In this document: piece after piece, positions 24,434 to 64,000 of the stretch
Numbering within the stretch: the stretch's first letter is position 1
Layout of the letters: the number at the start of each line of letters is the position of its first letter
The notes under the pieces: model-generated
Database searches by the model: none
What the model saw: the letters and a program-made list of their open reading frames with translations, nothing else
Told to the model about the DNA's origin: nothing
Assembly (NCBI RefSeq): GCF_003790525.1
Contig: NZ_CP033635.1
DNA from: Escherichia coli
GTDB taxonomy: Bacteria > Pseudomonadota > Gammaproteobacteria > Enterobacterales > Enterobacteriaceae
Strand: one strand, 5' to 3'
Length of the DNA: 64,000 nucleotides
Position numbers and translations under genes: made by a program

Positions 24434-25859
24434 TAATGCCAGTCAGTTAAGCAACTGACTGGCTCTTTTTCGGGGCTGTGGGGTATTTCCAGGGCCTCTC
24501 CTTTACCACTCTCGGGAAGGCCCTTTCCCTTCTTGTCGGTAATTTCACAAGTTGTCCCATACTTGCAAGATCGCGCATCAGCTCCGGTATACGTCCCGGT
24601 GAAGCGCCCTGCAATGTCATCAGCATTCTCATCACCATTCCACATGATTCTGAGAAACTCAGTTGATTCGGCCAGTAACCTTTCAGATATTCCGCCATTT
24701 TAATCATCTGATATCTCACCAGATTATAAGCCAGTAAGACACCCCACAGCTCTTGCTCCACAAGCTCCGGTTTTTTACTTCTCAGCGTCAGCCTGCTCAG
24801 TTGCATCGTCTGTTTTATCTCCCTGTATCCCAGTTCGATTTCCCAGCGATGACTGTACAGATCCGCCATTTCTCCTCCGGGGAAGCGCATGGCGTCCGTC
24901 ATCGACGTCAGCAGATGGCAGACTTTTCCTTTGCGCGTCACGGTCAGCAGGCGGGCTGTCACTTCATTTCCCAGTCCCGGCCACTTTTTTCGTGCCTGCG
25001 GGCTGGTTTTCAGCTTCACCAGATGATCGCCTTTACCCAGTTTTCTGATCTCTTCATATTGCGCTCCCTTTCTGAGAGGTATCATCCAGTGGCGGTGTTC
25101 TCCCGCCAGGCTCCAGGCATTTAACAGTCCCAGTGAGTAATAACCTTTATCCATTAACGTCAGAGTGTTATCGCCGGTTTGTTCTATAAGTTGCTCAGCA
25201 AGCTCATTTTCGCTGTTCTTCATCGTGCCGAAGGCTGCAGCCGTCAGCAGATGGCTGGTCAGTTCCATCTGGCAGACCATTTTGACCTGCGGGTAGAGCG
25301 CCGGGTTCCCGGCATGTGTCTGGCGGGGGAAGGCTGCATCGTTCTCTGGTGTATCCGGTGTGCGCCAGAACACACCATCGATGGCCAGCAGGGTCAGGCC
25401 GCACCAGTGCGGATGCGGCGTGGCGTTATGCCAGAGCTGCGCTGTTTTCGTGAACACGCGGCGGACAGCCTCACTTCCCAGGCGCTGGCGGGCCTGAATA
25501 ACGGCACTGGGGGCAACGAAGGGGCGATTGCCCGGCAGCATGATGTCCAGGCGATTCACAATCTGGTGAAGAGGTTCTTTACGCTCAAGCGCCATGCCAA
25601 CAATACACCAGACCATCATTTCGAGGGGAAGACGGCGCTTGCGTAGCGTTACAGTACCTGATTCGGCAAGGCAACGAGAGATGAGTTCGGGGTCGAGGTA
25701 ATCCCCCAGAGAAGTCAGTGGGTTACGCAGAGAATCGTAACGGGATACCAGATCAAGAGCCTGTCCAATGTGCATAAAAAAATCCGGAAACAAGTGAGCG
25801 TTTCCGGATTCTTACACAGCCACTGGATCGGTCAACTGATCCTTAACTGATCGGCATTA
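24434..25859 (-). mobile_element. IS4 insertion sequence
   Basis: about 1426 bp; terminal imperfect IRs (taatgccagtcagttaag / cttaactgatcggcattac); flanked by direct repeat cagccttcgggctg (13-14 bp); contains DDE transposase. Confidence 0.9.
24447..25775 (-). CDS. insG: IS4 transposase
   Basis: about 442-aa IS4-family DDE transposase ([15 protein letters not shown]...); track start 25793 is a short extension. Confidence 0.9.
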
Positions 25860-29614: not shown

Positions 29615-30286
29615 ATGCAGTACCCGATTAACGAGATGTTCCAGACCCTGCAAGGTGAGGGTTACTTTACCGGCGTCCCCGCCATTTTTATTCGTTTACA
29701 GGGATGCCCGGTTGGCTGTGCCTGGTGCGACACCAAACACACCTGGGAAAAGCTTGAGGATCGGGAAGTCTCCCTTTTCAGCATTCTGGCGAAGACCAAA
29801 GAGAGTGATAAGTGGGGGGCGGCGAGCAGTGAAGATTTGCTGGCTGTCATTGGTCGGCAGGGATATACCGCGCGGCATGTGGTGATTACGGGTGGTGAGC
29901 CTTGCATTCATGATTTGCTGCCACTGACTGACCTGCTCGAAAAGAACGGTTTTAGCTGCCAGATCGAAACCAGCGGTACTCATGAAGTACGCTGCACGCC
30001 GAATACCTGGGTTACCGTATCGCCAAAGCTGAACATGCGCGGCGGCTATGAAGTGTTGTCACAGGCACTGGAGCGAGCCAACGAAATCAAGCATCCAGTG
30101 GGACGCGTACGTGATATTGAAGCACTGGATGAACTACTGGCAACGCTGACCGATGATAAACCGCGAGTCATTGCACTCCAGCCGATTAGCCAAAAGGATG
30201 ATGCCACACGTTTGTGCATTGAAACCTGCATTGCGCGTAATTGGCGTTTGTCGATGCAAACACATAAATATCTAAATATTGCCTGA
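29615..30286 (+). CDS. queE: 7-carboxy-7-deazaguanine synthase (radical SAM)
   Basis: 223 aa with CxxxCxxC-like radical-SAM Cys cluster (GCPVGCAWCDT). Confidence 0.9.
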   Translation: MQYPINEMFQTLQGEGYFTGVPAIFIRLQGCPVGCAWCDTKHTWEKLEDREVSLFSILAKTKESDKWGAASSEDLLAVIGRQGYTARHVVITGGEPCIHDLLPLTDLLEKNGFSCQIETSGTHEVRCTPNTWVTVSPKLNMRGGYEVLSQALERANEIKHPVGRVRDIEALDELLATLTDDKPRVIALQPISQKDDATRLCIETCIARNWRLSMQTHKYLNIA

Positions 30287-30371: not shown

Positions 30372-31379
30372 TTATCGGTAGCGTTTTTGTAGACTGGCAG
30401 GAAGATAACGCTGTAATGGGGATGGCGTTTCACCTTCAATCAGTTGCGAAATAAGTTCAAAGCAGTGAAAAGCAAGTTGGCGATTATCCTGTTGTATTGT
30501 GTCGATTCTTACCGAAAGTGAATCATACAAGTAATGATCATCAAAACTCGCCAGGTGGATTTTACTGTCGAGTAAATTATATTGGCTCATATAGCGCAGA
30601 ACGCCTTCCAGTAATCCACAAGCGGCAGTGAATAAGGCTTTAGGGGGACGTCCTAAACGAGCGCATAGCGCGGCAAACATTTCATAGCCTGAGCTCGGAT
30701 GATAATTACCGTGAATAATCCATTCAGGTTGTAGCGTTACTCCGGCTTGCTGCAAGCCTTGTGTAAATCCTTCCAGTCGATCGCGAGTCGGTGACAAACG
30801 GGGTTGTCCGCCCAGAAAATAGAATTCATCCGGGTGACTCCGTGCAATATCTGCCACCAGAGCGGCGGTGGGAGAAACAGAGTCAGTAATGACCAATGGC
30901 AATGTGCTGCCGTTCATGTGGCGATCGAACAACACAACAGGTAATTGCTCGCTAAGTTTTTGATAGTCATTATCATGCAGCATACTGGATGCGACGATTA
31001 ACCCATCAACCTGGCGGGCAATCATATTGTTCACCACCATTGTTTCCTGTGAAGGATTTTCATCAGTACAGGATATGAGGAGTTGGACTCCCGCTTCCCG
31101 ACACAATGTTTCCAGTTCATGGGAAAATACTGCAAATCCGTAGTTAGTGATTTCAGGAACGACGAGACCAATGGTGTGACTGCGGTTGTCCCGTAATGAG
31201 CGGGCATGAATGCTGGGCTGATAATGCTGCTGTTGGGCAATACTCAGCACACGCTCACGCGTTTCCTGCGCAACACGTAACTCTTTGCCACGACCATTGA
31301 GAACCAGACTGGCGGTTGCTTTCGACACTCCCGCCAGTTCAGCAATGTCTTTAATAGTAACGCGTTTGGTTTTTCTCAC
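30372..31379 (-). CDS. scrR: LacI-family sucrose operon repressor
   Basis: 335 aa; N-terminal HTH ([22 protein letters not shown]) plus periplasmic-binding-like fold; last gene of the scr cluster. Confidence 0.8.
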
Positions 31380-31404
31380 GACGAGGATCCGTAATTCAAA
31401 ACCC

Positions 31405-32814
31405 TCATTCTACCATGCAGGCGCGTAGCGACCAGTAGTGTAACGTGACGTCAGACTCGCCCTGTAATATCAGCGAAGCTGGATGATGGGGAAAATAACG
31501 ATTGCTCATTACGCCTTCGCCATTATTGATGAATATCTCTATGCTGGAACTGTCACAGAGAATCTTCAGTGACGTTACGCTTCCTCGCCAGTAACGAGTT
31601 AGTTTCTCTTGCCCTGCAAGGCTTTTCCTCTGTAGTTGAATACCATCGTCATTAAGATGCAGTGCCAGTGCGTTGCCAAAATTCAGATGTAGCTCGCCTG
31701 ATGGAATGATGTCCATTTCCAGACGTTCAATTGCGACAGGCGGCGCATGATCCGCTTTTCCTTGCCAGAAGTGTTCAGCTTCACGCAGTTGCGCGAGTTC
31801 CCTGATTGGCATCTGAAATAATTTTCCCTTCTGGAATGAGAGTTCGCGAAAACAGGTCATTTGATGCTGCCAATGATGCTTTCTGGTTGGTTGCAACATC
31901 TCTTCGCCATCAGGAACCCCCATCCAGCCGACCAGTAATCGTCGCCCGTCCGGGGCTTCCATCGTCTGTGGTGCATAGAATTCAAATCCCGCATCCAGCT
32001 CTGAGAAAGCGCCATGCGTAAATTTGCCTGTCTCGTAATCAAACTGTCCATGTAGCCAGGCGCAGGGATAGGTATTCAGATAGCGCTCATGTTCGCGCGC
32101 CATTCCCTGGGGGCAGCAGAGGAGAATGTATTCACCATCAAGGGCGAAAAGATCAGGACATTCCCACATGTATCCTGCGTTATCAATTTCATTCAGACCA
32201 TTACCAGCAATTTCTCCATGAAAAGACCAGGTATAGAGATCGACAGAGGAATACAGCAGCACTTTCCCCCGTTTCTCTTTATCTTGCGCGCCAAGCACCA
32301 TGTACCATCGGCTGTTGTGCTTCCAGACTTTTGGATCACGAACATGTCCGGTGTAACCATCAGGTAACGGTATGACAGGGCCTAATTTATCAAACCCGCC
32401 CTGGTTATTTTCGGTGGCCAGACATTGCCATGCCGTTCTGCTGCCATCATCAAACTTAACATTACCGGTATAGCAAAGTGTGAGAACGCCCTGATTATTA
32501 ACCGCGCTTCCTGAGTAACAACCATTACGGTCATACTCTTTATCGGGCATTAGCGCTAATGGTTCATGCTGCCAGTGCAATAAATCCGTCGAACTCCAGT
32601 GCCCCCAACATTTGTACTTATGATTACAATCCAATGGATTCCACTGATAAAACAGATGATAGCGGCCTCCTGACCAGCAAAAGCCATTTGGATCGTTCAT
32701 TAGTCCGGTGACGGGAGCGAGATGCCAACAAGGATAGTGGGCATCTGCCTGTGCTTTGGACTGACCTTTCATCACTGCCTGTAAAATCGCGGGCATTTGT
32801 GAAGGCATCGACAT
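31405..32814 (-). CDS. scrB: sucrose-6-phosphate hydrolase (GH32 invertase)
   Basis: 469 aa with GH32 NDPNG catalytic motif. Confidence 0.85.
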
Positions 32815-34184
32815 TACTCCTCGTCTGTTTTGTATTTGAGCAATAAAGAGAGACTAAAAGCGACAGCGAAAGCAATCACCATTCCAATAATATAATTAAC
32901 CAACGATGTTGGCTGAACGATTGCCATGCCGGGTATTGCGGTCAGACCAACGGCAGTCATATAAACGTGAACAGAGACAACCCAGGCACCGCCGGCAGCG
33001 CCACCAATTAAGGCCGCAATAAAAGGTTTAACAAAACGAAGGTTGATACCAAAAATAGCGGCTTCAGTAATCCCTAACATTGCGGAAAAAGCCGAGGGTA
33101 GGGTGATTGCTTTAATTTTTGTATCTTTGGTTTTAAACCATACCGCCAGACATGCACCGCCTTGCGCAACGTTTGCCATTGCCCAAATAGGCAGCAGGAA
33201 ATTAACACCGATTGCAGGGTTACCTAAAAGTCCTGCTTCAATTGCGTGGAAGCTATGATGAATACCCGTAATAACAATCGCTGAATATAGCCCGCCGAAT
33301 AACAACCCCGCTAACCAGCCAGCGTGTGCAATCAGCGTGCTGAGAACGAAAGAGATACCATCACCTAACGCTCGCCCTGCCGGACCAATAATTAAAAGAG
33401 CGATAAAGCCAGAAATGACGACAGTCAGAAATGGCGTCAGAATGAGATCCAGAGCATCAGGGATAAACCTGCGTAACTGTTTTTCCACTATGCTCATAAA
33501 CCATACTGCCAGAAGCACGGGGAAAACCGTTCCCTGATAGCCAATCATGGCGATTTCAAAACCGAAGAAGTTCATTGTCTGAAATCCCGCAGCAACGCCC
33601 CAGGCATTTGTGAGTGCCGGGTGAGTCAGAATCCCTCCTAATGTCGCGCCAAGATAAGGATTTCCACCAAATTCACGAGCAGCAGTAAAGCCAATCAGGA
33701 TGGGGAGAATAATAAATGCGGCTGAACTGCACATATCCAGCAGGATATAAATCGCATTATCGGCATTCACCCAGCCATATGTTTTCACCATTCCCAGAAG
33801 CCCCATTAATAAACCAGAAGCAACAATGGCAGGAATGATGGGGACAAAAATATTAGAAAGCAGCCGTGCTATTCGCTGAAAAGGATTGAGTTTTTGAGCG
33901 GCGAGTCGAGCGGTATCTGCTTTACTGGATTCGCTAATACCCGCAACCTGAATAAAGGCAGCATAGACTTTATTAACCACGCCGGTGCCAAAGATGATCT
34001 GCATTTGCCCTGAATTACGAAAACAACCTTTCACTCCATCAATCTGGCCAATGGCATGTTGATCGGCAAGTGTGTCGTCAACCAGTACCAGCCGTAGGCG
34101 AGTGGCGCAATGTGCTGCACTGGCGATGTTCTCCTTACCACCTAATAAAGGAAGCAACGATTGGGCGATTTTATCGAAATCCAT
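32814..34184 (-). CDS. scrA: PTS sucrose-specific EIIBC component
   Basis: 456 aa; N-terminal EIIB Cys motif (CATRLRL) followed by polytopic EIIC. Confidence 0.85.
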   Translation of the reverse strand: MDFDKIAQSLLPLLGGKENIASAAHCATRLRLVLVDDTLADQHAIGQIDGVKGCFRNSGQMQIIFGTGVVNKVYAAFIQVAGISESSKADTARLAAQKLNPFQRIARLLSNIFVPIIPAIVASGLLMGLLGMVKTYGWVNADNAIYILLDMCSSAAFIILPILIGFTAAREFGGNPYLGATLGGILTHPALTNAWGVAAGFQTMNFFGFEIAMIGYQGTVFPVLLAVWFMSIVEKQLRRFIPDALDLILTPFLTVVISGFIALLIIGPAGRALGDGISFVLSTLIAHAGWLAGLLFGGLYSAIVITGIHHSFHAIEAGLLGNPAIGVNFLLPIWAMANVAQGGACLAVWFKTKDTKIKAITLPSAFSAMLGITEAAIFGINLRFVKPFIAALIGGAAGGAWVVSVHVYMTAVGLTAIPGMAIVQPTSLVNYIIGMVIAFAVAFSLSLLLKYKTDEE

Positions 34185-34244
34185 ATAACCCTCTAATTCA
34201 TTGTTATTTCAGTAAAAGCCTCACATTCGTGAGGCTGTCTGGTA

Positions 34245-35786
<1,542 letters not shown>

Positions 35787-35805
35787 TTATAAAAATTGCT
35801 AAAAT

Positions 35806-35879
35806 GCTAAACCGGTTTAGGTGTTGATAATAAAGCTGACTTTTTAGCCAGAGCAATTATTTTCGCTAAACCGATTTAG
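35806..35879. promoter_or_regulatory. two palindromic operator-like sites (gctaaaccggtttag at 35806-35820; gctaaaccgatttag at 35865-35879) in the scrY promoter region
   Basis: near-perfect LacI-type palindromes TAAACCGGTTTA in the scrK-scrY intergenic region. Confidence 0.55.
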
Positions 35880-35929
35880 TAAATGTGACAGGCACGACAA
35901 ATCGGGTTACAGATACAACAGCAGGATCA

Positions 35930-36850
35930 CTATTGTGAAGGGAGATCGTGTTGTCGGGGTAAGGCGGTTATCGCGCCTTTAGCCGTGGTCGCCAGAGCAC
36001 CACAAATCTGAGCTTGTGCAATGATTCGTTCAAGCTGTCTGGTATTTGTTGGTATTCCAGAATCAGCCAGACCTGCAAGTAATCCAGCGACAAAAGCATC
36101 TCCTGCCCCGGTCGTATCGACGACAGAAACAGGTTTGGCGGGATAGTGGATAAACTGCCCCTGAAAATACACAAGTACGCCATTTTTTCCTTGTGTAATA
36201 AGCAATAAAGTCAACGAATAACGTTGTACTAATGAATATGCGCCTTGCTGAACCTGGCTTTCGCCACTGATGAATAGCAACTCTTCTTCGGACAATTTAG
36301 CGATATTCGCCAGCGAAAGTGCGCGATCAAGGTATTTCCTTAATAGCGCTTCACTCTGCCAGAGATCGCTGCGGATATTGGGATCAAAACTGATGTTTCC
36401 GCCAGCCTGACGTATTTTCTCCATAGCCAGAAATGCGGTACTTCGGGAAGGTTCTGCACTGAGCGCAATGGAACAAAGATGGAGCCATTCACCCGGCCCA
36501 AATGCAGGAAGGTCACCAGGTTGTAAAAAAAGATCGGCACTTGGGCGTACCATAAAGGTAAAGTTTCTTTCTCCTTGCTCATCAAGTCCTACAGCCACAA
36601 TTGAGGTGCGTTGTTGAGGATCAAGAGACATATAATGTGTATCAACATTTTCTGTACTCAGTGTCTGATACATAAAGCGACCGAAAGGATCATCGCCAAC
36701 TTTGCCAATAAAGGCACTTTTCCCCCCCAGCCTTGCGATACCGACTGCAACATTAGCAGGCGCCCCGCCAGGACACTGTAGTAGTCTCCCCTGGCTTTCG
36801 GGTAATAAATCAACAACCGCATCACCGAGTACCCATACTCTTGCGCTCAT
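35930..36850 (-). CDS. scrK: fructokinase (PfkB family)
   Basis: 306 aa with PfkB signature (DTTGAGDAF). Confidence 0.85.
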   Translation of the reverse strand: MSARVWVLGDAVVDLLPESQGRLLQCPGGAPANVAVGIARLGGKSAFIGKVGDDPFGRFMYQTLSTENVDTHYMSLDPQQRTSIVAVGLDEQGERNFTFMVRPSADLFLQPGDLPAFGPGEWLHLCSIALSAEPSRSTAFLAMEKIRQAGGNISFDPNIRSDLWQSEALLRKYLDRALSLANIAKLSEEELLFISGESQVQQGAYSLVQRYSLTLLLITQGKNGVLVYFQGQFIHYPAKPVSVVDTTGAGDAFVAGLLAGLADSGIPTNTRQLERIIAQAQICGALATTAKGAITALPRQHDLPSQ

Positions 36851-37014: not shown

Positions 37015-38493
37015 TTACGCATTCGACCAGCTCTGGATCGAATCTTCATTCCCCAGCTCACCATGCATCACTTCATACGATTTTTTCAGGATCACATCAG
37101 TGTGCTTGGTTAGGTCTTTGAAAATGCCTTTATTCATCGCGTCGTAGCGTTTGGCGTTGCTCTCAACAGGCATAAAGATATCTTTCACGCGAACCATTTT
37201 GTCGACAGCCGTTGCGTAATCCGGGTATAGCCCCAGACCTGCCGCCGTATTGATCGCAGCCCCCAGACTTGCACAACCATTAATGGCGTTTCGGCGTGCC
37301 GGAAGGTTGAACACGTCGGCAAAAATCTGCATAAACAGATCGCTGTTCGAACCGCCGCCAGTAATGATCACATGCTTTGCAAAGTGATTCATTTCATTAC
37401 ACATATTGTCGTAATTGTTCTTCAGCGTCAGCGCCACGCTTTCCAGTATCGAACGATATATCCATGCGTAATCCATGCTGGAATCAAAGCCGATCATAAT
37501 CCCGCGTTTGTATGGTTCCCACGGATTGGTCAGCCAGTCCAGCACCGTCATCAGACCATTACAGCCAGGCGGCACACAAGACGCTTTTTTGTTGAGCAAA
37601 TCTTCCGGTGAAAGATCCTGTGCTTTGGCATCCTGAATTAACGACTCGCCTAGCATGTCGCGTAGCCAGCTCACCGTCCACATGCCTTTGCGAATACCGT
37701 AACCTTCATACAGCAAGGTTTGCGGAATAGAAGACATAATCGGCCAGTACGCTACCGGATCTTTCGGCAGTGCTTTGCCGTTCATCATCAACGCGATGTA
37801 AGTGCCAAGAGAAATTACCGCCGTTTCATCATCCAGTAACCCTGCTCCCAGTGCTTCTACCGGTTTATCACTGGTGGTACAAACAACGGGCAGTCCAACC
37901 GGGAAATGTGTCGCCAGCGCGGCTTGTGGTGTGATATGCCCAAGAACAGTGCCCGGCATTTGCACATCAAAAAGCATCTGTCGGGGAATATTAAACTTCT
38001 CCATTACCGCGGTATCTTCGCTCCATGCCCAGGTCTTATAATCCACCGGCCACTGACCAAAATAGTTGGCGATATTGTCTTTAAACTCGCCGGTTAAACG
38101 GTGTGTCAGATAACCTGAAAAAGAGGTGACATATGCCACATCAGGATTGGTGTGCTCGTAGGGACGTGTAACGCGTGCATCCTGCCAGCTAATCAACGGC
38201 GCAGCTGGCGTGCCATCGGCTTTCAATAACGCACGGCAGCAACGGATGGATCCCAGACCAATACCGACAATATCTTCTTTATTTCCGGCAAACTGACTCA
38301 TCAAATCGTGACCGGCAAAACATAATGATGCCCATAAATCGTCGTCAGGATGTTCTGCGGTATCGGCATCTGGCGTGTGCATCGGCTGCAATAAGCCTTT
38401 GCCTTCGCAAACCACATTACCTTCCAGATCATACATCACCACTTTTGTGCTCTGACTTCCGCCATCAATCCCTATGATGTATTTTTTCGACAT
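37015..38493 (-). CDS. ygcE: FGGY-family carbohydrate kinase
   Basis: 492-aa FGGY kinase; conserved K-12 position. Confidence 0.85.
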   Translation of the reverse strand: MSKKYIIGIDGGSQSTKVVMYDLEGNVVCEGKGLLQPMHTPDADTAEHPDDDLWASLCFAGHDLMSQFAGNKEDIVGIGLGSIRCCRALLKADGTPAAPLISWQDARVTRPYEHTNPDVAYVTSFSGYLTHRLTGEFKDNIANYFGQWPVDYKTWAWSEDTAVMEKFNIPRQMLFDVQMPGTVLGHITPQAALATHFPVGLPVVCTTSDKPVEALGAGLLDDETAVISLGTYIALMMNGKALPKDPVAYWPIMSSIPQTLLYEGYGIRKGMWTVSWLRDMLGESLIQDAKAQDLSPEDLLNKKASCVPPGCNGLMTVLDWLTNPWEPYKRGIMIGFDSSMDYAWIYRSILESVALTLKNNYDNMCNEMNHFAKHVIITGGGSNSDLFMQIFADVFNLPARRNAINGCASLGAAINTAAGLGLYPDYATAVDKMVRVKDIFMPVESNAKRYDAMNKGIFKDLTKHTDVILKKSYEVMHGELGNEDSIQSWSNA

Positions 38494-52864: not shown

Positions 52865-53072
52865 GCGAGCAGCATTCCTGATTTTAAACGTGAACGTCGT
52901 TGGAAGAATTAACAGGTATAGAATGGCGTTGGGTGCTTGAGGCTGTCTGGCGTTAAGCATTCGCGAGGTTCCAGATGGACAAAAGCCCCAGGCGATATTT
53001 CTATCAACCTGAGGCCAGCGTTCGAACCCAAACAATTCGAATGTTAGTCTCTTCTTTGCAGGGAGGCAAGAC

Positions 53073-53225
53073 ATGCTGACAAAATATGCCCTTGTGGCAA
53101 TCATAGTGCTGTGTTTTACAGTACTGGGATTCACGCTGATGGTAGGCGACTCGTTGTGTGAGTTGAGTATCAGAGAACGTGGTATGGAGTTTAAGGCGGT
53201 TCTCGCTTACGAATCGAAGAAGTAG
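53073..53225 (+). CDS. Hok/Gef-family type I toxin (HokE-like small membrane peptide)
   Basis: 50-aa [53 protein letters not shown]; single TM helix, conserved Cys and C-terminal AYES motif; GGGAGG RBS; not in the supplied ORF track (below length cut-off). Confidence 0.8.
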
Positions 53226-53246: not shown

Positions 53247-54585
53247 CATAAGCGCTAACTTAAGGGTTGTGGTATTACGCCTGATATGATTTAACGTGCC
53301 GATGAATTACTCTCACGATAACTGGTCAGCAATTCTGGCCCATATTGGTAAGCCCGAAGAACTGGATACTTCGGCACGTAATGCCGGGGCTCTAACCCGC
53401 CGCCGCGAAATTCGTGATGCTGCAACTCTGCTACGTCTGGGGCTGGCTTACGGCCCCGGGGGGATGTCATTACGTGAAGTCACTGCATGGGCTCAGCTCC
53501 ATGACGTTGCAACATTATCTGACGTGGCTCTCCTGAAGCGGCTGCGGAATGCCGCCGACTGGTTTGGCATACTTGCCGCACAAACACTTGCTGTACGCGC
53601 CGCAGTTACGGGTTGTACAAGCGGAAAGAGATTGCGTCTTGTCGATGGAACAGCAATCAGTGCGCCCGGGGGCGGCAGCGCTGAATGGCGACTACATATG
53701 GGATATGATCCTCATACCTGTCAGTTCACTGATTTTGAGCTAACCGACAGCAGAGACGCTGAACGGCTGGACCGATTTGCGCAAACGGCAGACGAGATAC
53801 GCATTGCTGACCGGGGATTCGGTTCGCGTCCCGAATGTATCCGCTCACTTGCTTTTGGAGAAGCTGATTATATCGTCCGGGTTCACTGGCGAGGATTGCG
53901 CTGGTTAACTGCAGAAGGAATGCGCTTTGACATGATGGGTTTTCTGCGCGGGCTGGATTGCGGTAAGAACGGTGAAACCACTGTAATGATAGGCAATTCA
54001 GGTAATAAAAAAGCCGGAGCTCCCTTTCCGGCACGTCTCATTGCCGTATCACTTCCTCCCGAAAAAGCATTAATCAGTAAAACCCGACTGCTCAGCGAGA
54101 ATCGTCGAAAAGGACGAGTAGTTCAGGCGGAAACGCTGGAAGCAGCGGGCCATGTGCTATTGCTAACATCATTACCGGAAGATGAATATTCAGCAGAGCA
54201 AGTGGCTGATTGTTACCGTCTGCGATGGCAAATTGAACTGGCTTTTAAGCGGCTCAAAAGTTTGCTGCACCTGGATGCTTTGCGTGCAAAGGAACCTGAA
54301 CTCGCGAAAGCGTGGATATTTGCTAATCTACTCGCCGCATTTTTAATTGACGACATAATCCAGCCATCGCTGGATTTCCCCCCCAGAAGTGCCGGATCCG
54401 AAAAGAAGAACTAACTCGTTGTGGAGAATAACAAAAATGGTCATCTGGAGCTTACAGGTGGCCATTCGTGGGACAGTATCCCTGACAGCCTACAAAACGC
54501 AATTGAAGAACGCGAGGCATCGTCTTAACGAGGCACCGAGGCGTCGCATTCTTCAGATGGTTCAACCCTTAAGTTAGCGCTTATG
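53247..54585 (+). mobile_element. IS186 insertion sequence
   Basis: 1339 bp; perfect 23-bp terminal IRs (cataagcgctaacttaagggttg); flanking about 11-bp direct repeat gggtaaaaccc within a GGGG-N6-CCCC palindrome. Confidence 0.9.
53302..54414 (+). CDS. insL: IS186 transposase (IS4 family)
   Basis: about 370 aa from MNYSHDNWSAILAHIGKPEEL, recognisable as the IS186 transposase. Confidence 0.9.
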   Translation: MNYSHDNWSAILAHIGKPEELDTSARNAGALTRRREIRDAATLLRLGLAYGPGGMSLREVTAWAQLHDVATLSDVALLKRLRNAADWFGILAAQTLAVRAAVTGCTSGKRLRLVDGTAISAPGGGSAEWRLHMGYDPHTCQFTDFELTDSRDAERLDRFAQTADEIRIADRGFGSRPECIRSLAFGEADYIVRVHWRGLRWLTAEGMRFDMMGFLRGLDCGKNGETTVMIGNSGNKKAGAPFPARLIAVSLPPEKALISKTRLLSENRRKGRVVQAETLEAAGHVLLLTSLPEDEYSAEQVADCYRLRWQIELAFKRLKSLLHLDALRAKEPELAKAWIFANLLAAFLIDDIIQPSLDFPPRSAGSEKKN

Positions 54586-54768
54586 GGGTAAAACCCCGCG
54601 TACTGAATTGTGATGGTTTGGTCTCCTGCACCCTTTTTTAATTTATATTGTTTATGTGAATATTATGCCTATGTTTATTATTCATATATATTACGGATGA
54701 AAATTATTTGATTATTCATAATGTAAATATTTTATTGAACGATATATATCACAGATAATTTTTAATAT

Positions 54769-57468
54769 ATGCGTAAATATCCTTTAAGTTTACTGAAGGA
54801 TAAAAATATTGTGACTTTTTTTGATTTCTGGGGAAAAACCCGACGCGGCGAGAAAGACGGGGGCGACGACTATCACCTTCTTTGCTGGCATTCGCTGGAT
54901 GTAGCCGCGATGGGCTATTTAATGGTTAAAAGCAATTGCTTCGGACTGGCTGACTATTTTCGTCAATTAGGTTTCGCTGACACGGAGCAGGCAGCACAAT
55001 TTTTCGCCTGGCTGCTGTGCTGGCACGATATTGGAAAATTTGCCCGCTCTTTTCAGCAACTTTACCTGCACCCACAACTCAAGGTCCCGGAAGGCGCAAG
55101 AAAGAATTACGAAAAGATCTCTCATTCAACGCTGGGCTACTGGTTGTGGAACCATTATTTAAGTGAATGTCAGGAGTTGCTTCCTTCATCTTCACTCTCT
55201 CCGCGCAAACTTAAACGGGTGATGGAGATGTGGATGCCCATGACTACCGGGCATCATGGTCGACCCCCTGAGCGTATGGATGAACTGGATAATTTTCTGC
55301 CTGAAGACAAAGGTGCCGCACGAGATTTTCTCCTTGCAATCAAGGTACTGTTTCCGCTCATAGAGATCCCCACATTCTGGGATGATGACGAGGGCGTTGA
55401 ACTTATAAAACAACTTTCCTGGTATATCTCTGCAACCGTCGTACTTGCAGACTGGACGGGATCGTCAACGCGATATTTTCCACGCGTCGCACAGACAATG
55501 GATATTGAAGATTACTGGCAGAAAACTTTAGTTCAGGCTCAAAACGCCTTAACCGTCTTTCCTCCAAAAGCAGAAAGCGCGCCTTTCACCGGAATTAATA
55601 CGCTGTTTCCTTTTATTGAGAATCCGACACCGCTACAGCAAAAGGTGCTGGATCTGGATATCAGCCAGCCGGGACCACAGTTATTTATTCTGGAGGATGT
55701 AACCGGCGCAGGTAAAACAGAAGCGGCGCTTATCCTGGCGCACAGGTTGATGGCTGCGGGGAAAGCGCAGGGTTTGTTTTTTGGCCTGCCAACAATGGCA
55801 ACGGCCAATGCCATGTACGATCGACTGGTCAAAACCTGGCTTGCTTTCTATTCGCCAGAGTCCCGCCCCAGCCTGGTGCTGGCACACAGTGCCCGAACAT
55901 TAATGGACCGCTTTAATGAATCACTCTGGTCCGGTGATTTAGTCGGGTCAGAAGAACCGGATGAACAAACGTTCAGTCAGGGATGTGCGGCCTGGTTTGC
56001 CGACAGTAACAAGAAGGCGCTACTGGCTGAAATTGGCGTCGGCACGCTGGATCAGGCGATGATGGCTGTGATGCCGTTCAAACATAATAATCTGCGGCTT
56101 CTGGGACTGAGTAACAAAATCCTGCTGGCTGATGAGATCCATGCCTGTGACGCTTACATGTCATGCATTCTTGAAGGGCTGATCGAGCGGCAGGCGCGTG
56201 GCGGAAACAGCGTCATTTTGCTTTCTGCCACGTTATCTCAACAGCAGCGCGACAAACTCGTTGCTGCCTTTGCGCGTGGTATAGAGGGCCAGCAAGAAGC
56301 TCCGTTCCTGGAAAAGGATGATTACCCCTGGCTGACGCACGTTACGAAATCCGATGTGCATTCACACCGGGTAGCGACGCGCAAAGACGTTGAGCGCAGC
56401 GTGAGTGTGGGTTGGCTTCATAGCGAACAAGAGTGTATTGCGCGTATCGCATCGGCGGTAAGTCAGGGGAAATGTATCGCCTGGATCCGAAATTCTGTCG
56501 ATGACGCCATCCAGGTTCATCGTCAGTTACTTGCCCGCGGCGTCATTCCTGCTTCCAGCCTTTCACTTTTTCATAGCCGCTTTGCTTTTAGCGATCGCCA
56601 GCGAATTGAAACGGAGACGCTGGCACGCTTTGGTAAAGAAGACTGTTCACAGCGTGCCGGAAAAGTCCTCATTTGTACTCAAGTCCTGGAGCAGAGCGTT
56701 GACTGCGACCTGGACGAAATGATTTCCGACCTTGCCCCTGTTGATTTACTGATCCAGCGAGCAGGGCGATTACAGCGACATATCCGCGATATGAATGGCC
56801 AGTTAAAGCGTGACGGTAAAGACGAGCGTCACCCTCCTGAATTGCTGATTCTGGCCCCCGTCTGGGACGACTCTCCGGGTGACGAATGGTTTGGCAGTGC
56901 CATGCGTAACAGTGCATTTGTCTATCCCGATCATGGGCGAATCTGGCTGACGCAGCGTGTGCTGCGTGAGCAAGGTGCTATTCAGATGCCACACTCAGCC
57001 CGGCTTCTGATTGAATCAGTCTACGGTGAGGACGTAGTAATGCCGGAAGGGTTTGCCCGCAGCGAGCAGGAGCAAGTGGGCAAATATTACTGCGATCGCG
57101 CAATGGCTAAAAAGTTTGTACTGAACTTCAGGCCCGGCTATGCCGCCAATATCAACGATTACCTCCCGGAAAAACTGTCGACACGTCTGGCTGAAGAGTC
57201 TGTTTCCCTGTGGCTGGCTACCTGTATTGACGGTGTGGTGAAGCCTTATGCCACAGGTGCACACGCATGGGAAATGAGCGTTGTCAGAGTGCGCCGAAGC
57301 TGGTGGAAAAAACATCGGGATGAGTTTTCTTTACTGGAAGGGGATGCGTTCAGGCAGTGGTGCGTTGAACAGCGGCATGATCCGGAGATGGCAAACGTGA
57401 TTTTAGTCACCGATGACGAAAGTTGTGGGTATTCGGCTACGGAGGGATTGATTGGCAAGGTTGGTTGA
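54769..57468 (+). CDS. cas3: Cas3 nuclease-helicase (type I-E)
   Basis: 899 aa; N-terminal HD motif (HSLDVAAM), Walker A (TGAGKTEAAL), DExH (DEIHA); heads the cas operon. Confidence 0.9.
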   Translation: MRKYPLSLLKDKNIVTFFDFWGKTRRGEKDGGDDYHLLCWHSLDVAAMGYLMVKSNCFGLADYFRQLGFADTEQAAQFFAWLLCWHDIGKFARSFQQLYLHPQLKVPEGARKNYEKISHSTLGYWLWNHYLSECQELLPSSSLSPRKLKRVMEMWMPMTTGHHGRPPERMDELDNFLPEDKGAARDFLLAIKVLFPLIEIPTFWDDDEGVELIKQLSWYISATVVLADWTGSSTRYFPRVAQTMDIEDYWQKTLVQAQNALTVFPPKAESAPFTGINTLFPFIENPTPLQQKVLDLDISQPGPQLFILEDVTGAGKTEAALILAHRLMAAGKAQGLFFGLPTMATANAMYDRLVKTWLAFYSPESRPSLVLAHSARTLMDRFNESLWSGDLVGSEEPDEQTFSQGCAAWFADSNKKALLAEIGVGTLDQAMMAVMPFKHNNLRLLGLSNKILLADEIHACDAYMSCILEGLIERQARGGNSVILLSATLSQQQRDKLVAAFARGIEGQQEAPFLEKDDYPWLTHVTKSDVHSHRVATRKDVERSVSVGWLHSEQECIARIASAVSQGKCIAWIRNSVDDAIQVHRQLLARGVIPASSLSLFHSRFAFSDRQRIETETLARFGKEDCSQRAGKVLICTQVLEQSVDCDLDEMISDLAPVDLLIQRAGRLQRHIRDMNGQLKRDGKDERHPPELLILAPVWDDSPGDEWFGSAMRNSAFVYPDHGRIWLTQRVLREQGAIQMPHSARLLIESVYGEDVVMPEGFARSEQEQVGKYYCDRAMAKKFVLNFRPGYAANINDYLPEKLSTRLAEESVSLWLATCIDGVVKPYATGAHAWEMSVVRVRRSWWKKHRDEFSLLEGDAFRQWCVEQRHDPEMANVILVTDDESCGYSATEGLIGKVG

Positions 57469-57565
57469 GATGTCTGCGACAGGATTCTCTGAATAGTTGA
57501 TACACAAAAAAGGATGGAAGGATGGACAACCGACCAGGGATGGTCTTTTTTACGAGAGGATGCGT

Positions 57566-59128
57566 ATGAACTCGTTTTCACTTCTGACAACCCCGTGGTT
57601 GCCTGTTCGTTTCAAAGACGGAACGACAGGCAAGCTGGCACCAGTCGATCTGGCTGATGAAAATGTTGTCGATATCGCCGCACCGCGAGCAGATTTACAA
57701 GGTGCGGCCTGGCAGTTTTTGCTGGGACTACTACAAACCAGCTTCGCGCCAAAAGATCATCGTCGTTGGGATGATATCTGGGAAGACGGACTGGAAGCTG
57801 AAAAGCTACGAGAAGCATTGCTGTCTTTAGAACATGCTTTCCAGTTTGGGCCTGATTCATCTTCATTTATGCAGGATTTTGAGGCGCTCACGGGAGATAA
57901 AGTTCCGGTCGCTTCGCTACTGCCTGAGATTCCCGGCTCTCAAACGACGAAGTTTAATAAAGACCATTTTATCAAGCGGGGTGTAACGGAATATCTGTGC
58001 CCCCATTGCTTAGCATTGGCCTTGTTCTCTTTACAGTTGAATGCACCCGCGGGCGGCAAAGGCTATCGCACCGGTTTACGAGGCGGTGGGCCGATGACGA
58101 CTCTCATTGAATTACAGGAATATCAGGGCAATCAACAAACACCCTTGTGGCGCAAACTGTGGCTCAACGTGATGCCGCAGGATGAAGCCGACTTACCGCT
58201 ACCCAAAAAATTTGACGATCTGATTTTCCCCTGGCTAGGCCCGACGCGTACCAGCGAACTGGTCGGTGCGGTGGTAACCCATGATCAGGTCAATAAACTC
58301 CAGGCGTACTGGGGAATGCCGCGGCGTATACGTATTGATTTTAATACCACGACAGTCGGCAACTGCGATATTTGCGACGAGCAGAACGACGCGCTCCTGA
58401 GCCTGATGACGACCAAAAATTATGGTGCCAATTATGCCATGTGGCAGCATCCCTTAACGCCTTACCGTGTACCACTTAAAGAGGGTGGCGAGTTTTACTC
58501 CGTTAAACCACAACCGGGCGGTTTAATCTGGCGCGACTGGTTAGGCCTTATCGAAACGGGTAAATCAGAAAACAATACGGAACTTCCCGCGTTGGTGGTG
58601 AAACTCTTTAATGCCAGCAGTCTGAAACAGGCAAAAGTGGGCCTATGGGGATTTGGTTATGATTTTGACAACATGAAAGCGCGCTGTTGGTACGAACACC
58701 ATTTCCCGCTACTGCTCAATAAAAAAGAAGGCCAGATACCGAAGCTGCGGCTGGCTGCGCAAACGGCTTCACGGATTCTGAGTCTGTTACGGAGTGCATT
58801 GAAAGAAGCATGGTTCTCCGATCCAAAAGGTGCAAGGGGTGATTTCAGTTTTGTGGATATCGACTTCTGGAACAAAACTCAGCATCGCTTCCTGAGGTTA
58901 GTGCGCCAAATTGAAGAAGGTCAGGATGCGGATGAATTACTCGGCAAATGGCAAAAGGAAATGTGGTTATTCGCGCGTCAGGATTTTGACGAGCGTGTAT
59001 TCACTAATCCTTATGAGCCCGTTGATTTGAAACGCGTCATGACCGCGCGCAAGAAATATTTTACAACATCGGCGGAGAAGCAAAGTGCTAAAGCCGCCAG
59101 GGAGAAAAAGCAGGAGGCTGCTGAATGA
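57566..59128 (+). CDS. casA: Cascade large subunit Cse1/CasA (Cas8e)
   Basis: about 520 aa from MNSFSLLTTPWLPVR with AGGA RBS; track start 57497 likely an extension; position after cas3. Confidence 0.8.
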   Translation: MNSFSLLTTPWLPVRFKDGTTGKLAPVDLADENVVDIAAPRADLQGAAWQFLLGLLQTSFAPKDHRRWDDIWEDGLEAEKLREALLSLEHAFQFGPDSSSFMQDFEALTGDKVPVASLLPEIPGSQTTKFNKDHFIKRGVTEYLCPHCLALALFSLQLNAPAGGKGYRTGLRGGGPMTTLIELQEYQGNQQTPLWRKLWLNVMPQDEADLPLPKKFDDLIFPWLGPTRTSELVGAVVTHDQVNKLQAYWGMPRRIRIDFNTTTVGNCDICDEQNDALLSLMTTKNYGANYAMWQHPLTPYRVPLKEGGEFYSVKPQPGGLIWRDWLGLIETGKSENNTELPALVVKLFNASSLKQAKVGLWGFGYDFDNMKARCWYEHHFPLLLNKKEGQIPKLRLAAQTASRILSLLRSALKEAWFSDPKGARGDFSFVDIDFWNKTQHRFLRLVRQIEEGQDADELLGKWQKEMWLFARQDFDERVFTNPYEPVDLKRVMTARKKYFTTSAEKQSAKAAREKKQEAAE

Positions 59129-59661
59129 GTATTGTAAAAGAGGAGCACAAAGCCACGCTGCGTAAATGGCACGAAGAGTTGCAGGAAAAACGCGGCAATC
59201 GTGCCAGTCTGCGGCGTAGCACAACGGTTAATGATGTTTGTCTGTCAGAAGGTTTTCGTTCTCTGCTGATGCAGACCCACACGTTGTGGAAAATTGAATC
59301 ACAGGAGTGGCGTTTTACCGCACTGGCGCTGGTTGCCGCCGTTGCCGCCAATGTAAAAGCCATTGATGAACGGCAGCCTTTTGCCGCGCAGTTGGCGGCG
59401 GTAATGTCTGAGGGGCGTTTTACTCGCCTGTCGGCAATCAAAACGCCGGATGATTTACTGCGCCAGTTACGTCGCGCGGTCAAATTATTAAACGGTTCCG
59501 TCAATCTTATCTCTTTGGCAGACGATATTTTCCGCTGGTGCCAGGAGAGTGACGACCTGCTCAACCATCACCGCCGTCAGCAGCGGCCAACAGAATTTAT
59601 CCGTATCCGCTGGGCGCTGGAATATTACCAGGCTGGCGACGCCGATAACGAACAAAATTAA
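59125..59661 (+). CDS. casB: Cascade small subunit Cse2/CasB
   Basis: 178 aa; ATGA overlap with casA stop; operon position. Confidence 0.8.
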   Translation: MSIVKEEHKATLRKWHEELQEKRGNRASLRRSTTVNDVCLSEGFRSLLMQTHTLWKIESQEWRFTALALVAAVAANVKAIDERQPFAAQLAAVMSEGRFTRLSAIKTPDDLLRQLRRAVKLLNGSVNLISLADDIFRWCQESDDLLNHHRRQQRPTEFIRIRWALEYYQAGDADNEQN

Positions 59662-59675
59662 TAAAGGACTATCTC

Positions 59676-60731
59676 ATGACGACATTTATTCAGCTTCATT
59701 TGTTAACCGCTTACCCTGCAGCCAACCTTAACCGTGATGACACCGGTGCGCCGAAAACCGTGGTGCTGGGTGGAGCAACGCGTCTGCGCGTTTCCTCGCA
59801 AAGTCTGAAACGTGCGTGGCGCACTTCTGCACTTTTTGAACAGGCGCTGGCGGGCCATATTGGTATTCGTAGTGGGCGTATCGCGCGCGAGGCAGCAACT
59901 ATCATGATAGAGAAAGGAATCGAAGAAAAAAAAGCCATCGAATGGGCGGCAGATATTGCCGATTATCTTGGTAAAGCCAAAAAAGACAAAAAACCAAAAG
60001 ATCCGCTCACTAACGCTGAAACTGAACAGCTCGTCCATATCAGCCCGGCAGAATTTGACGCCGTAAAAGCGCTGGCCCATCAACTGGCAGAAGAAAAGCG
60101 CGCGCCAAAAGAGGACGATCTCGCTTTGTTACGTAAAGATCGTATGGCGGTAGATATCGCCATGTTTGGTCGTATGCTGGCGAATAAACCCGAGTTTAAT
60201 GTTGAAGCCGCCTGTCAGGTCGCGCACGCGTTTGGTGTCAGTGAAACGATTGTCGAAGATGATTTTTTCACCGCCGTTGATGATTTGCGCCAGGCCTCTG
60301 AAGATGCTGGTGCAGGGCATCTTGGTGAAACTGGATTTGGTTCTGCGCTGTTCTACACCTATATCTGCATTGATAAAGATCTGCTGGTCGAAAACCTCGG
60401 CGGTGACGAAGCATTAGCTAATCAGACCCTGCGCGCCTTTACGGAAGCAGCGTTTAAAGTTTCCCCAACCGGTAAACAAAACAGCTTTGCCAGCCGTGCC
60501 TACGCCTCCTGGGCGCTGGCAGAAAAAGGCACCGAACAACCGCGTTCTCTGGCGGCGGCTTTCTATGAACCCATTAATGGCACACGTCAGTTAGATGTGG
60601 CGGTGCAGCGTATTACAACGCTTCGCGAAAACATGAATACGGTTTACGAACAGAAGACCGAATGCGCAAGTTTTGACGTGATGAACAAACAGGGAAGCAT
60701 GAAGGACGTGCTGGACTTTATCTGCGCGTAA
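59676..60731 (+). CDS. casC: Cascade backbone subunit Cas7/CasC
   Basis: 351 aa; operon position. Confidence 0.85.
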   Translation: MTTFIQLHLLTAYPAANLNRDDTGAPKTVVLGGATRLRVSSQSLKRAWRTSALFEQALAGHIGIRSGRIAREAATIMIEKGIEEKKAIEWAADIADYLGKAKKDKKPKDPLTNAETEQLVHISPAEFDAVKALAHQLAEEKRAPKEDDLALLRKDRMAVDIAMFGRMLANKPEFNVEAACQVAHAFGVSETIVEDDFFTAVDDLRQASEDAGAGHLGETGFGSALFYTYICIDKDLLVENLGGDEALANQTLRAFTEAAFKVSPTGKQNSFASRAYASWALAEKGTEQPRSLAAAFYEPINGTRQLDVAVQRITTLRENMNTVYEQKTECASFDVMNKQGSMKDVLDFICA

Positions 60732-60741
60732 GGGGCGGCTT

Positions 60742-61488
60742 ATGAGCCAATATCTGATTTTTCAGCTTCATGGGCCAATGGCATCCTGGGGCGTTGATGC
60801 ACCCGGTGAGGTGCGTCATAGCCATGAACTGCCTTCGCGTTCAGCATTGCTGGGGCTGCTGGCTGCCGGGGTAGGGATACGGCGTGATGACACCGAATGC
60901 TTAAACGCGTTTAATCGCCACTATTCACTGGTGGTTTGCGCCAGCCGTAACCCGCGCTGGGCACGGGATTATCACACGGTCCAGATGCCAAAAGAGGTGC
61001 GTAAAGCGCGTTATTTCAGCCGTCGCGAAGAGTTGAGCGACCCTGATCTTCTAAGCGCGATTATCTCCCGGCGCGACTACTACACCGATGCCTGGTGGAT
61101 GGTGGCCGTGGCAACAACAGCTGATGCGCCTTACAGCCTCGAACAGTTGCAGGAAGGTTTACGCCATCCGGTTTTTCCGCTTTATCTGGGGCGAAAAAGC
61201 CATCCGCTGGCATTACCCCTTGCGCCGTTACTGCTCGAAGGCAACGCGTCTGATGCCTTACGTAACGCATACCAACAGTATCAGGATCGTTTCCACGAAC
61301 TAAAAGTCTCACTCCCGAAACTTCAGGATGAATGCTGGTGGGAAGGGGAGCACGATGGCCTGGTCTCGAGCAAAATATTACGCCGCCGGGATGTTCCTTT
61401 AAATCGTCAGCAGTGGCTGTTTGGGGAACGCACCGTCAATCAGGGGCCGTGGCTCAGCAAGGAGGAACCATGTACCTCTCAAGAATAA
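60742..61488 (+). CDS. casD: Cascade subunit Cas5/CasD
   Basis: 248 aa; operon position; N-terminal LIFQLHGPMASWG resembles the K-12 CasD N-terminus. Confidence 0.8.
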   Translation: MSQYLIFQLHGPMASWGVDAPGEVRHSHELPSRSALLGLLAAGVGIRRDDTECLNAFNRHYSLVVCASRNPRWARDYHTVQMPKEVRKARYFSRREELSDPDLLSAIISRRDYYTDAWWMVAVATTADAPYSLEQLQEGLRHPVFPLYLGRKSHPLALPLAPLLLEGNASDALRNAYQQYQDRFHELKVSLPKLQDECWWEGEHDGLVSSKILRRRDVPLNRQQWLFGERTVNQGPWLSKEEPCTSQE

Positions 61489-62116
61489 CCTTACATACCG
61501 GCCAGCTTTCGCCTGCGCAGTTGCTGCATCTGGTGGATCGCGGGGAATATGTGATGCATCAGTGGCTGTGGGATCTTTTTCCTGGCGGCAAAGAAAGGCA
61601 ATTTCTTTATCGTCGGGAAGAACTCCAGGGCGCGTTTCGCTTTTTTGTCCTGTCGCAGGAACGCCCGGCGGAAAGTGAAACGTTCACCATCGAATGCCGG
61701 TCATTTGCGCCTGAACTGCATACCGGACAATCCCTTTGTTTCAACCTGCGGGCGAATCCAACAGTCTGTAAAGCGGGTAAGCGCCACGATCTGCTGATGG
61801 AGGCGAAACGGCAGGTGAGGGGGCAGGCGGAAGGAAGAAATGTCTGGTTGCATCAACAACAGGCGGCGCTGGACTGGCTGGCAGCGCAGGGGGAGAGAAG
61901 CGGTTTTACACTGCTGGATACCTCGGTCGATGCCTACCGACAACAGCAACTGCGGCGGGAAAACTCCCGGCAACTGATCCAGTTCAGTAGCGTGGATTAT
62001 ACAGGGATGCTTACAGTCACCGATCCAGGGTTATTTCTGCAACGTCTCTGCCTGGGGTATGGCAAAAGCCGGGCGTTCGGCTGTGGTCTGATGTTAATCA
62101 AACCCGGAGCAGAGGC

Positions 62117-62120
<4 letters not shown>
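61470..62120 (+). CDS. casE: CRISPR RNA endoribonuclease Cas6e/CasE
   Basis: 216 aa from MYLSRITLHTGQ with AGGAGG RBS; ends GCGLMLIKP; track start 61332 is an extension. Confidence 0.85.
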
Positions 62121-63330
<1,210 letters not shown>

Positions 63331-63426
63331 GTTACCCGTTCTTTAAAAATAAGGAAAAGTTTGAATTTAGTTGGTAGATTGTTGTTGTGGAATAAAATTG
63401 TTTAAAAACAGATACGTATGCTTAGT
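63331..63426 (+). promoter_or_regulatory. CRISPR leader (AT-rich)
   Basis: 96-bp AT-rich segment between cas2 stop and first repeat. Confidence 0.7.
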
Positions 63427-64000
63427 GTGTTCCCTGCGCCAGCGGGGATAAACCGGTGACCATAAGGGCATTTCATACTGCCTTGCTGTGTTCCCTGCGC
63501 CAGCGGGGATAAACCGGTGAACGTGACAACGCCCGCGACAGAAACGTCGTGTTCCCTGCGCCAGCGGGGATAAACCGGGAAGAAGCGGTAAAGCGGGTTC
63601 CAGTTCAGCGTGTTCCCTGCGCCAGCGGGGATAAACCGAAATTAATTTCGAAACGGGCGTTGATGGTGAAGTGTTCCCTGCGCCAGCGGGGATAAACCGG
63701 CTGGCGCACCTTACGCAAAAATAGACGTAAAGTGTTCCCTGCGCCAGCGGGGATAAACCGCCAGGGAGCGAAGCTGTGGCCATGCTGAAAGGGTGTTCCC
63801 TGCGCCAGCGGGGATAAACCGGGGTTCTATTTCCTCGGGATTTGCCGACACGCGTGTTCCCTGCGCCAGCGGGGATAAACCGGTCAACGCTGGTCAGGCG
63901 TGGTACTTCCTCCGGTGTTCCCTGCGCCAGCGGGGATAAACCGGCTGCCGCGCTTTCGGTGTGGGAGCAGTATGAGTGTTCCCTGCGCCAGCGGGGATAA
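63427..64000 (+). CRISPR. type I-E CRISPR array, at least 10 repeats (9 complete, 10th truncated by window end), 61-bp period
   Basis: identical 29-bp repeats GTGTTCCCTGCGCCAGCGGGGATAAACCG starting at 63427, 63488, 63549, 63610, 63671, 63732, 63793, 63854, 63915, 63976; nine unique 32-bp spacers. Confidence 0.97.

Follow-up and report, generated by a model that had tools for sequence, protein, structure and literature searches.

An unusual C9T repeat allele in an otherwise ordinary type I-E CRISPR array of an Escherichia coli lineage

The window, that is, the whole stretch of Escherichia coli DNA analysed here (64,000 nucleotides), ends inside a CRISPR array on the plus strand (63427-64000). 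Nine copies of the 29-bp repeat GTGTTCCCTGCGCCAGCGGGGATAAACCG, called the T9 repeat below for the T at its position 9, were found with 0 mismatches between 63427 and 63943 at a period of exactly 61 bp, and a tenth copy at 63976-64000 was cut by the window edge. The 61-bp units started at 63427, 63488, 63549, 63610, 63671, 63732, 63793, 63854, 63915 and 63976, and the nine spacers in the window were 32 bp each and all different. An earlier note on this DNA had listed this repeat and these nine spacers, and they were recovered letter for letter at the positions it gave. In 100 dinucleotide-preserving shuffles of the window, 0 matches to the repeat were obtained. No other type I-E array was found in the 64-kb window at up to 7 substitutions, and an Rfam scan of 62000-64000 returned no family at E ≤ 1 (query of 29 nt, E-value corrected for 4,227 families).

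The same stretch is annotated as CRISPR by RefSeq in strains CM2 and SMS-3-5. The array beyond the window was read from these two genomes, which are identical to the window or differ by one base over 54500-64000. Over 9.5 kb, the cas-array region was 100.0% identical to CM2, EC332 and SMS-3-5, with one base different in CM2, at 62160. The full array in CM2 and SMS-3-5 comprised 22 repeats and 22 spacers, every unit being exactly 29 + 32 bp; a degenerate terminal repeat and then iap came next. The array does run past 64000, as the note had said, and the full length that it had proposed to obtain from sequence beyond the window is 22 repeats and 22 spacers in these near-identical genomes.

Eight cas genes were identified upstream of the array, all on the plus strand. 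The cas3 gene (54769-57468), encoding a helicase/HD nuclease of 899 aa, matched TIGR01587 (E = 9.6e-64) and TIGR01596 (E = 3.2e-25), both above cut-off, and an identical cas3 is annotated by RefSeq in CM2 and SMS-3-5. It was followed by casA/cse1 (57566-59128; TIGR02547, E = 1.4e-181, full-length, with the start taken from the RefSeq annotation of CM2), casB/cse2 (59125-59661; TIGR02548, E = 1.3e-29), cas7e/casC (59676-60731; TIGR01869, E = 6.8e-133), cas5e/casD (60742-61488; TIGR01868, E = 3.7e-45), an O157-type cas6e/casE of 216 aa, or cas-EO (61470-62120; TIGR01907, E = 3e-84), cas1e (62117-63040; TIGR03638, E = 4.8e-114) and cas2e (63037-63330; TIGR01873, E = 3.2e-39). All eight genes were intact and full-length and matched the type I-E NCBIfam models above curated cut-offs. 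An AT-rich leader of 96 bp (63331-63426, plus strand) lay between cas2e and the first repeat. It aligned with the leaders of K-12 and EDL933 at a mean column identity of 87%, the leader-repeat junction included, and contained a promoter-like site at 63371-63398 (TTGGTA, a 16-nt spacer and TAAAAT), which is a consensus match only. Since the leader lies between cas2 and repeat 1, directly upstream of the array and on the same strand, the spacers read from the leader-proximal end first, in the order that had been given.

Two side observations concern the DNA upstream of cas3. A frameshifted IS421 element of the IS4 family (transposase CDS 53299-54414, element end near 54584) separates a hok/gef gene from cas3, whose start codon lies about 185 bp downstream of the element; SMS-3-5 lacks this copy, and CM2 and EC332 carry it. 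The insertion could change cas3 expression. The Hok/Gef family toxin gene itself was found at 53070-53222, between cysH and the cas operon, by the RefSeq annotation of CM2 and SMS-3-5.

The gene set of a type I-E system, cas3, cse1-cse2-cas7-cas5-cas6e and cas1e-cas2e, is present in one operon-like block, and the array has the corresponding 29-bp partly palindromic repeat, 32-bp spacers and an AT-rich leader by cas2. The call of a type I-E array made in the note agrees with all eight cas genes, the leader and the 61-bp period. E. coli has two type I-E variants, one with K-12-type cas genes and A at repeat position 2 and one with O157:H7-type cas-EO and T at that position (PMC3737337). The system described here belongs to the second: the repeat starts with GTG, and the leader and cas6e-cas2 were 95% identical to EDL933, as was the cas6e-cas1-cas2-leader segment at the nucleotide level. 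The locus is CRISPR1 (CRISPR2.1, cas2-iap) of the O157-type I-E variant, and the window shows its leader-proximal third. It is a textbook type I-E system, already annotated in public genomes, and not a new kind of element.

The closest described system is the O157:H7-type CRISPR2.1 (CRISPR-A, leader-A and cas-EO; Diez-Villasenor et al. 2013, PMC3737337), with which the locus shares the cas2-array-iap position and gene order, a repeat starting with GTG, units of 29 + 32 bp, and AAG and ATG PAMs, equal to the published CWT. Unlike the O157:H7-type array, it carries C9T in 19 of 22 repeats, and this allele forms the array majority only in a lineage of 24 genomes. CRISPR I of K-12 has the same repeat length and hairpin, 27 of the 29 repeat bases, a homologous leader and spacer 22 in common with the array; K-12 differs in A at position 2, C at position 9 and a Cas6e only 26% identical. 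The K-12 repeat GAGTTCCCCGCGCCAGCGGGGATAAACCG given in the note was correct: it is the sequence of repeats 1-10 of the MG1655 array, and both changes that the note had pointed out, at positions 2 and 9, are therefore real. K-12 was the wrong reference for position 2, because the cognate repeat of cas-EO already has T there (PMC3737337), and only C9T is unusual. As a side observation, the MG1655 array (L004) contains internal stem and loop repeat variants including G18A, which would put a C9-A18 mismatch where the window array has its U-G pair.

When the repeat was folded as RNA, both forms gave a seven-pair hairpin (U5-A22, C6-G21, C7-G20, C8-G19, N9-G18, G10-C17 and C11-G16, with the loop GCCA). 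C9T turns C9-G18 into U-G, the third pair from the loop, and the wobble in the repeat stem pointed out in the note was reproduced as the pair U9-G18. The isolated repeat folded at -13.0 kcal/mol with U9 and at -15.2 kcal/mol with C9, a cost of 2.2 kcal/mol. With both flanking spacers included, the median hairpin probability was 0.84 (U9) versus 0.86 (C9), and repeats 5, 6, 7 and 10 had a predicted occupancy of 0.001-0.42 (U9) versus 0.11-0.86 (C9), all of these being thermodynamic, protein-free predictions. By these models, a possible cost of C9T is a weaker hairpin in some spacer contexts. In a search for published work on Cas6e stem mutants, the papers retrieved (PMC4288178, PMC11317134, PMC5965381, PMC3683919 and PMC3902920) contained no test of pair 9-18, and the exact repeat, in DNA, reverse-complement or RNA spelling, was not found in the papers searched.

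On DNA, the same transition changes the IR1 motif from CCCCGCG to CCCTGCG. Goren et al. found the inverted repeats essential for adaptation, with CCCCGCG anchoring one of the two molecular rulers of Cas1-Cas2 (PMC5039180). The allele is a natural experiment, the change falling inside both the Cas6e-bound stem and the ruler anchor. We consider it highly probable that C9T is a tolerated, nearly neutral polymorphism in an ordinary type I-E array, with the history and mechanism proposed below. The folding results also bear on an opposite explanation, that C9T impairs crRNA maturation and that the array of this lineage is decaying and effectively silent, which we regard as improbable. The weakening by 2.2 kcal/mol, the collapse of predicted occupancy in 4 of 21 spacer contexts and the position of the change within the CCCC/GGGG block would fit such a defect. 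However, U-G keeps pairing, the isolated repeat is predicted to form the same hairpin, and the eight cas genes remain intact and full-length. Between these two explanations stands one that we hold to be unlikely but clearly less so than a silent array: U9-G18 may not be neutral, crRNA yield may depend on the neighbouring spacers through the weakened hairpin, given the predicted occupancies at repeats 5, 6, 7 and 10, the IR1 anchor may be relaxed, and the lineage would then be a natural hypomorph. If so, the lineage would be useful for measuring the need for stem stability and for IR1 sequence in vivo.

The full array in CM2 and SMS-3-5 carried T9 in repeats 1-18 and 22 and C9 in repeats 19-21 (L001 13904-14237 and L002 13819-14152), and repeat 17 ended in C instead of G. 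The allele described in the note as fixed was indeed present in all visible repeats, but three repeats outside the window, 19-21, have the canonical C9. As is established for type I-E, each insertion duplicates the repeat next to the leader (PMC5039180). Since the first repeat is copied at each insertion, the T9 block means that the mutation arose after spacer 18 had entered. In the history that we propose, C9T would have arisen in the leader-proximal repeat once spacer 18 was in place, and Cas1-Cas2, copying the first repeat at each insertion, would have spread T9 into the next 17 units. The allele thus appears, from the order of the repeats, to have been duplicated through at least 17 acquisitions. 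As the 17 T9 units are exactly 29 + 32 bp, CCCTGCG evidently still supports accurate repeat duplication, and a transition carried through at least 17 accurate insertions indicates that position 9 tolerates C-to-T, at least for adaptation. Were maturation impaired, the allele could still have spread in this way, because adaptation acts at the DNA level and needs no working hairpin RNA.

Propagation from the leader end does not account for T9 in repeat 22. Recombined alleles were found within the lineage: SBF22 carried T before spacer 19, and M172-1 carried T before spacer 22 after a deletion. Recombination between repeats does reshuffle alleles in the lineage, as these arrays show, and the specific event for repeat 22 could not be reconstructed. 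A donor array from elsewhere was considered for the C9 block and rejected, as spacers 18-21 occur only in the lineage itself. They were private to 23 genomes, all of them among the 24 with multi-copy T9. Spacer 22, the oldest and beyond the window, matched K-12 strains exactly over 29 of its 32 bases. With the full spacer set, 4,278 genomes were matched, most of them through spacer 22 and K-12 strains included.

Seven arrays of the lineage were compared at full length, and they differed only by spacer deletions and one duplication. No new leader-end spacer was found in the seven lineage arrays, and there was no sign of current activity in them. Arrays that lose spacers and gain none would be compatible with impaired maturation, but they are equally expected of a silenced but intact system, and the pattern therefore does not point at T9.

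The exact T9 repeat was found in 29 of 5,426 complete E. coli genomes, compared with 4,299 for the canonical repeat GTGTTCCCCGCGCCAGCGGGGATAAACCG. It was present in 10-20 copies in 24 of the 29 and as one isolated copy inside a CRISPR2.3 array in the other five. In the nine genomes examined, the multi-copy T9 repeats belonged to the same cas2-iap array. The five genomes with a lone internal CRISPR2.3 copy were unrelated, and the identical C9T stayed isolated in them and was never propagated, in contrast to the window lineage, where the mutation hit the repeat beside the leader and multiplied with at least 17 insertions. Among 100,044 species represented by one genome each, the 27-mer was limited to one copy each in Mixta theicola and Pectobacterium aroidearum, and T9 was the array consensus in none of these species representatives. 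The absence of a T9 consensus across that set would be expected if the allele harmed crRNA maturation.

The segment from cas6e to the leader was at least 99% identical in only 24 genomes, the next nearest being about 95%. In the cysJIH-ygc flank, too, identity reached at least 99% in 24 genomes and was 95-99% in nearly all others; the eight best-matching genomes, for which the overlap of the lists was compared, were all on the T9 list. Because the count of 24 recurs for T9, for the cas6e-leader segment and for the flank, the allele is the mark of a single clonal lineage. Collinearity with SMS-3-5 extended over the first 52.8 kb of the window. C9T is a lineage-private allele of the SMS-3-5 clonal lineage and a clean clonal marker for SMS-3-5-like strains, whose sources in the genome collection were poultry, dogs, humans and water in several countries. 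We take SMS-3-5 to belong to phylogroup F and ST354; a literature check returned no paper with all three terms, and none of the conclusions here draws on this assignment. That T9 might stem from sequencing or assembly errors, or from repeats brought together by chance, was considered and dismissed as having practically no chance of being correct, as nine exact copies stand against 0 expected and the same allele occurs in 24 independently sequenced complete genomes.

The private cas allele could also be read in another way, namely that C9T co-evolved with lineage substitutions in Cas6e or Cas1 that altered repeat-protein specificity. The identity of this Cas6e to K-12 CasE was 26%, and it differed at 9-10 of 216 residues from the proteins of EDL933, AR437 and APEC102026, all three of which have canonical first repeats. 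Cas6e residues H84, V99, R123, N124, C194 and L195 and five Cas1 residues differed from all three of these comparators, and the cas6e-cas1-cas2-leader allele is confined at 99% identity or more to the same 24 genomes, with the next at about 95%. Moreover, the 64-kb window holds no second I-E array, its usual site being occupied by other genes, so nothing there holds the proteins to the canonical repeat. On the other hand, the flanking housekeeping DNA shows the same distribution as the cas allele, so that the substitutions in Cas6e and Cas1 resemble the usual divergence of a lineage. C9 has persisted in repeats 19-21 of the same array, and K-12 CasE recognises essentially the same hairpin at 26% identity, which means that recognition survives far larger changes in the protein. 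We consider such co-evolution very unlikely, and favour instead the tolerated polymorphism, for which the spacers provided further evidence.

The note had suggested matching the spacers to phages and looking for AAG or ATG PAMs, and P2-like and lambdoid targets were found, four of them with AAG or ATG. Spacer 4 (63639-63670, plus strand) matched gpI, for baseplate and tail formation, of a P2-like phage with an AAG PAM: the match was 31/32 in IMGVR_UViG_2529293142_000021 and 28/32 in vB_EcoM-569R10, also with AAG, the four mismatches in the latter all falling at third codon positions of gpI. Spacer 5 (63700-63731, plus strand) matched the same P2-like phage at 29/32 with the 5' flank ATA, a diverged match found only within the contig retrieved with spacer 7; an exact search of IMG/VR with its first 24 nt gave no match. 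In IMGVR_UViG_2529293142_000021, its protospacer shares the strand of the one matched by spacer 4 and starts 9 nt past the end of that one. Spacer 7 (63822-63853, plus strand) matched a long tail gene of the P2-like phage contig at 32/32 with an ATG PAM; the gene had a weak tape-measure-like family match, and the protospacer was on the same strand as those of spacers 4 and 5.

Spacer 8 (63883-63914, plus strand) matched the early region of lambdoid prophages, at 32/32 in a prophage of strain R7 and at 31/32 in a prophage of JX2, both with an ATG PAM. An estimated 400 complete E. coli genomes, EC958 among them, contain the exact protospacer of spacer 8, a number extrapolated from an evenly spaced listing. 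Spacer 9 (63944-63975, plus strand) matched the JX2 lambdoid prophage at 32/32 with an ATG PAM; its target gene lies downstream of a ydaT-family gene, and 2.5 kb separate the protospacer from that of spacer 8, which is on the same strand. The lambdoid prophage early region matched by spacers 8 and 9 is widespread among other E. coli. Beyond the window, spacer 11 pointed to the same strand of vB_EcoM-569R10 as spacer 4, with a 28/32 match in the tail sheath gene. The 5' flanks of spacers 5 and 11, ATA and ATT, were non-canonical in the diverged phage relatives available. In total, of the five protospacers matched by spacers of the window, four had an AWG PAM, AAG for spacer 4 and ATG for spacers 7, 8 and 9. 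CWT (= AWG) was shown experimentally to be the acquisition motif of the cas-EO variant, and that of K-12 is CTT only (PMC3737337).

Spacers 1, 2, 3 and 6 had no match in INPHARED, PLSDB, E. coli genomes (exact 28-nt words) or IMG/VR (exact first 24 nt). Matches of spacers 3, 8 and 9 to phages of Gordonia, Stenotrophomonas and Pectobacterium extended into the repeat and were therefore discarded as chance hits. The note had also proposed a comparison with plasmids and the host genome. No spacer had a credible plasmid target in PLSDB, and none had a self-target elsewhere in the window when up to 7 mismatches were allowed. In SMS-3-5 and MINF_1A, the spacer set matched only their own arrays.

An estimated 140 other E. 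coli genomes also carry spacer 7 in CRISPR2.3 arrays, flanked by canonical repeats where these were checked. Its presence in a different array at a different locus indicates that the P2-like protospacer was probably acquired independently. In the CRISPR2.3 array of TA8571 (L016 2501-2532), for instance, the spacer was identical to window positions 63822-63853.

Spacers 4, 5 and 7, and likewise spacers 8 and 9, cluster on one phage and one strand, and the clusters fit normal, possibly primed, adaptation. Same-strand clusters of this kind would arise about 1 time in 16 under random strand choice, by our estimate, and repeated naive acquisition would also fit. Priming needs Cascade with a mature crRNA, so that, going by the clusters, at least some T9-flanked crRNAs were probably processed. 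The same consideration counts against impaired maturation, since an array whose crRNAs did not mature would not be expected to prime. The note's judgement that the variant is probably functional holds for adaptation, on at least 17 accurate duplications and canonical PAMs; for crRNA function, the spacer clusters lend it indirect support.

In the mechanism that we propose for this tolerated allele, the array would be transcribed from the leader, and Cas6e would bind each hairpin and cut after G21, as is standard for the family. The products would be crRNAs of 61 nt with the 5' handle AUAAACCG, a 32-nt spacer and a 21-nt 3' hairpin. With such guides, Cascade and Cas3 would be directed to protospacers that have an AWG flank and lie in P2-like and lambdoid temperate phages.

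Several further observations were made on the array and its surroundings. Spacer 15, beyond the window, matched the clpA-serW intergenic region of BH100 at 30/32 (L018 3001-3030) with no canonical PAM. The matched sequence adjoins tRNA-Ser, recurs in an estimated 100 genomes and may be what remains of a phage or of an attachment site. A degenerate CRISPR2.2 relic repeat downstream of CRISPR2.3, ATGTTCCCTGCATCAGCGGGGATAAACCG, also has T at position 9, and this relic was found in five of the six CRISPR2 loci examined (L005, L006, L008, L009 and L016). The place where other E. coli have CRISPR2.2/2.3 arrays is occupied in the window by a sucrose-utilisation-like cluster (30372-36850), located between queE (29615-30286) and ygcE (37015-38493) and encoding a kinase, a carbohydrate porin, a sucrose PTS IIBC component, a sucrose-6-phosphate hydrolase and a LacI-family regulator. 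From collinearity with the SMS-3-5 annotation, an IS4 element adjoining eno was placed at 24447-25793 and a mazEF toxin-antitoxin pair at about 19.8-20.4 kb.
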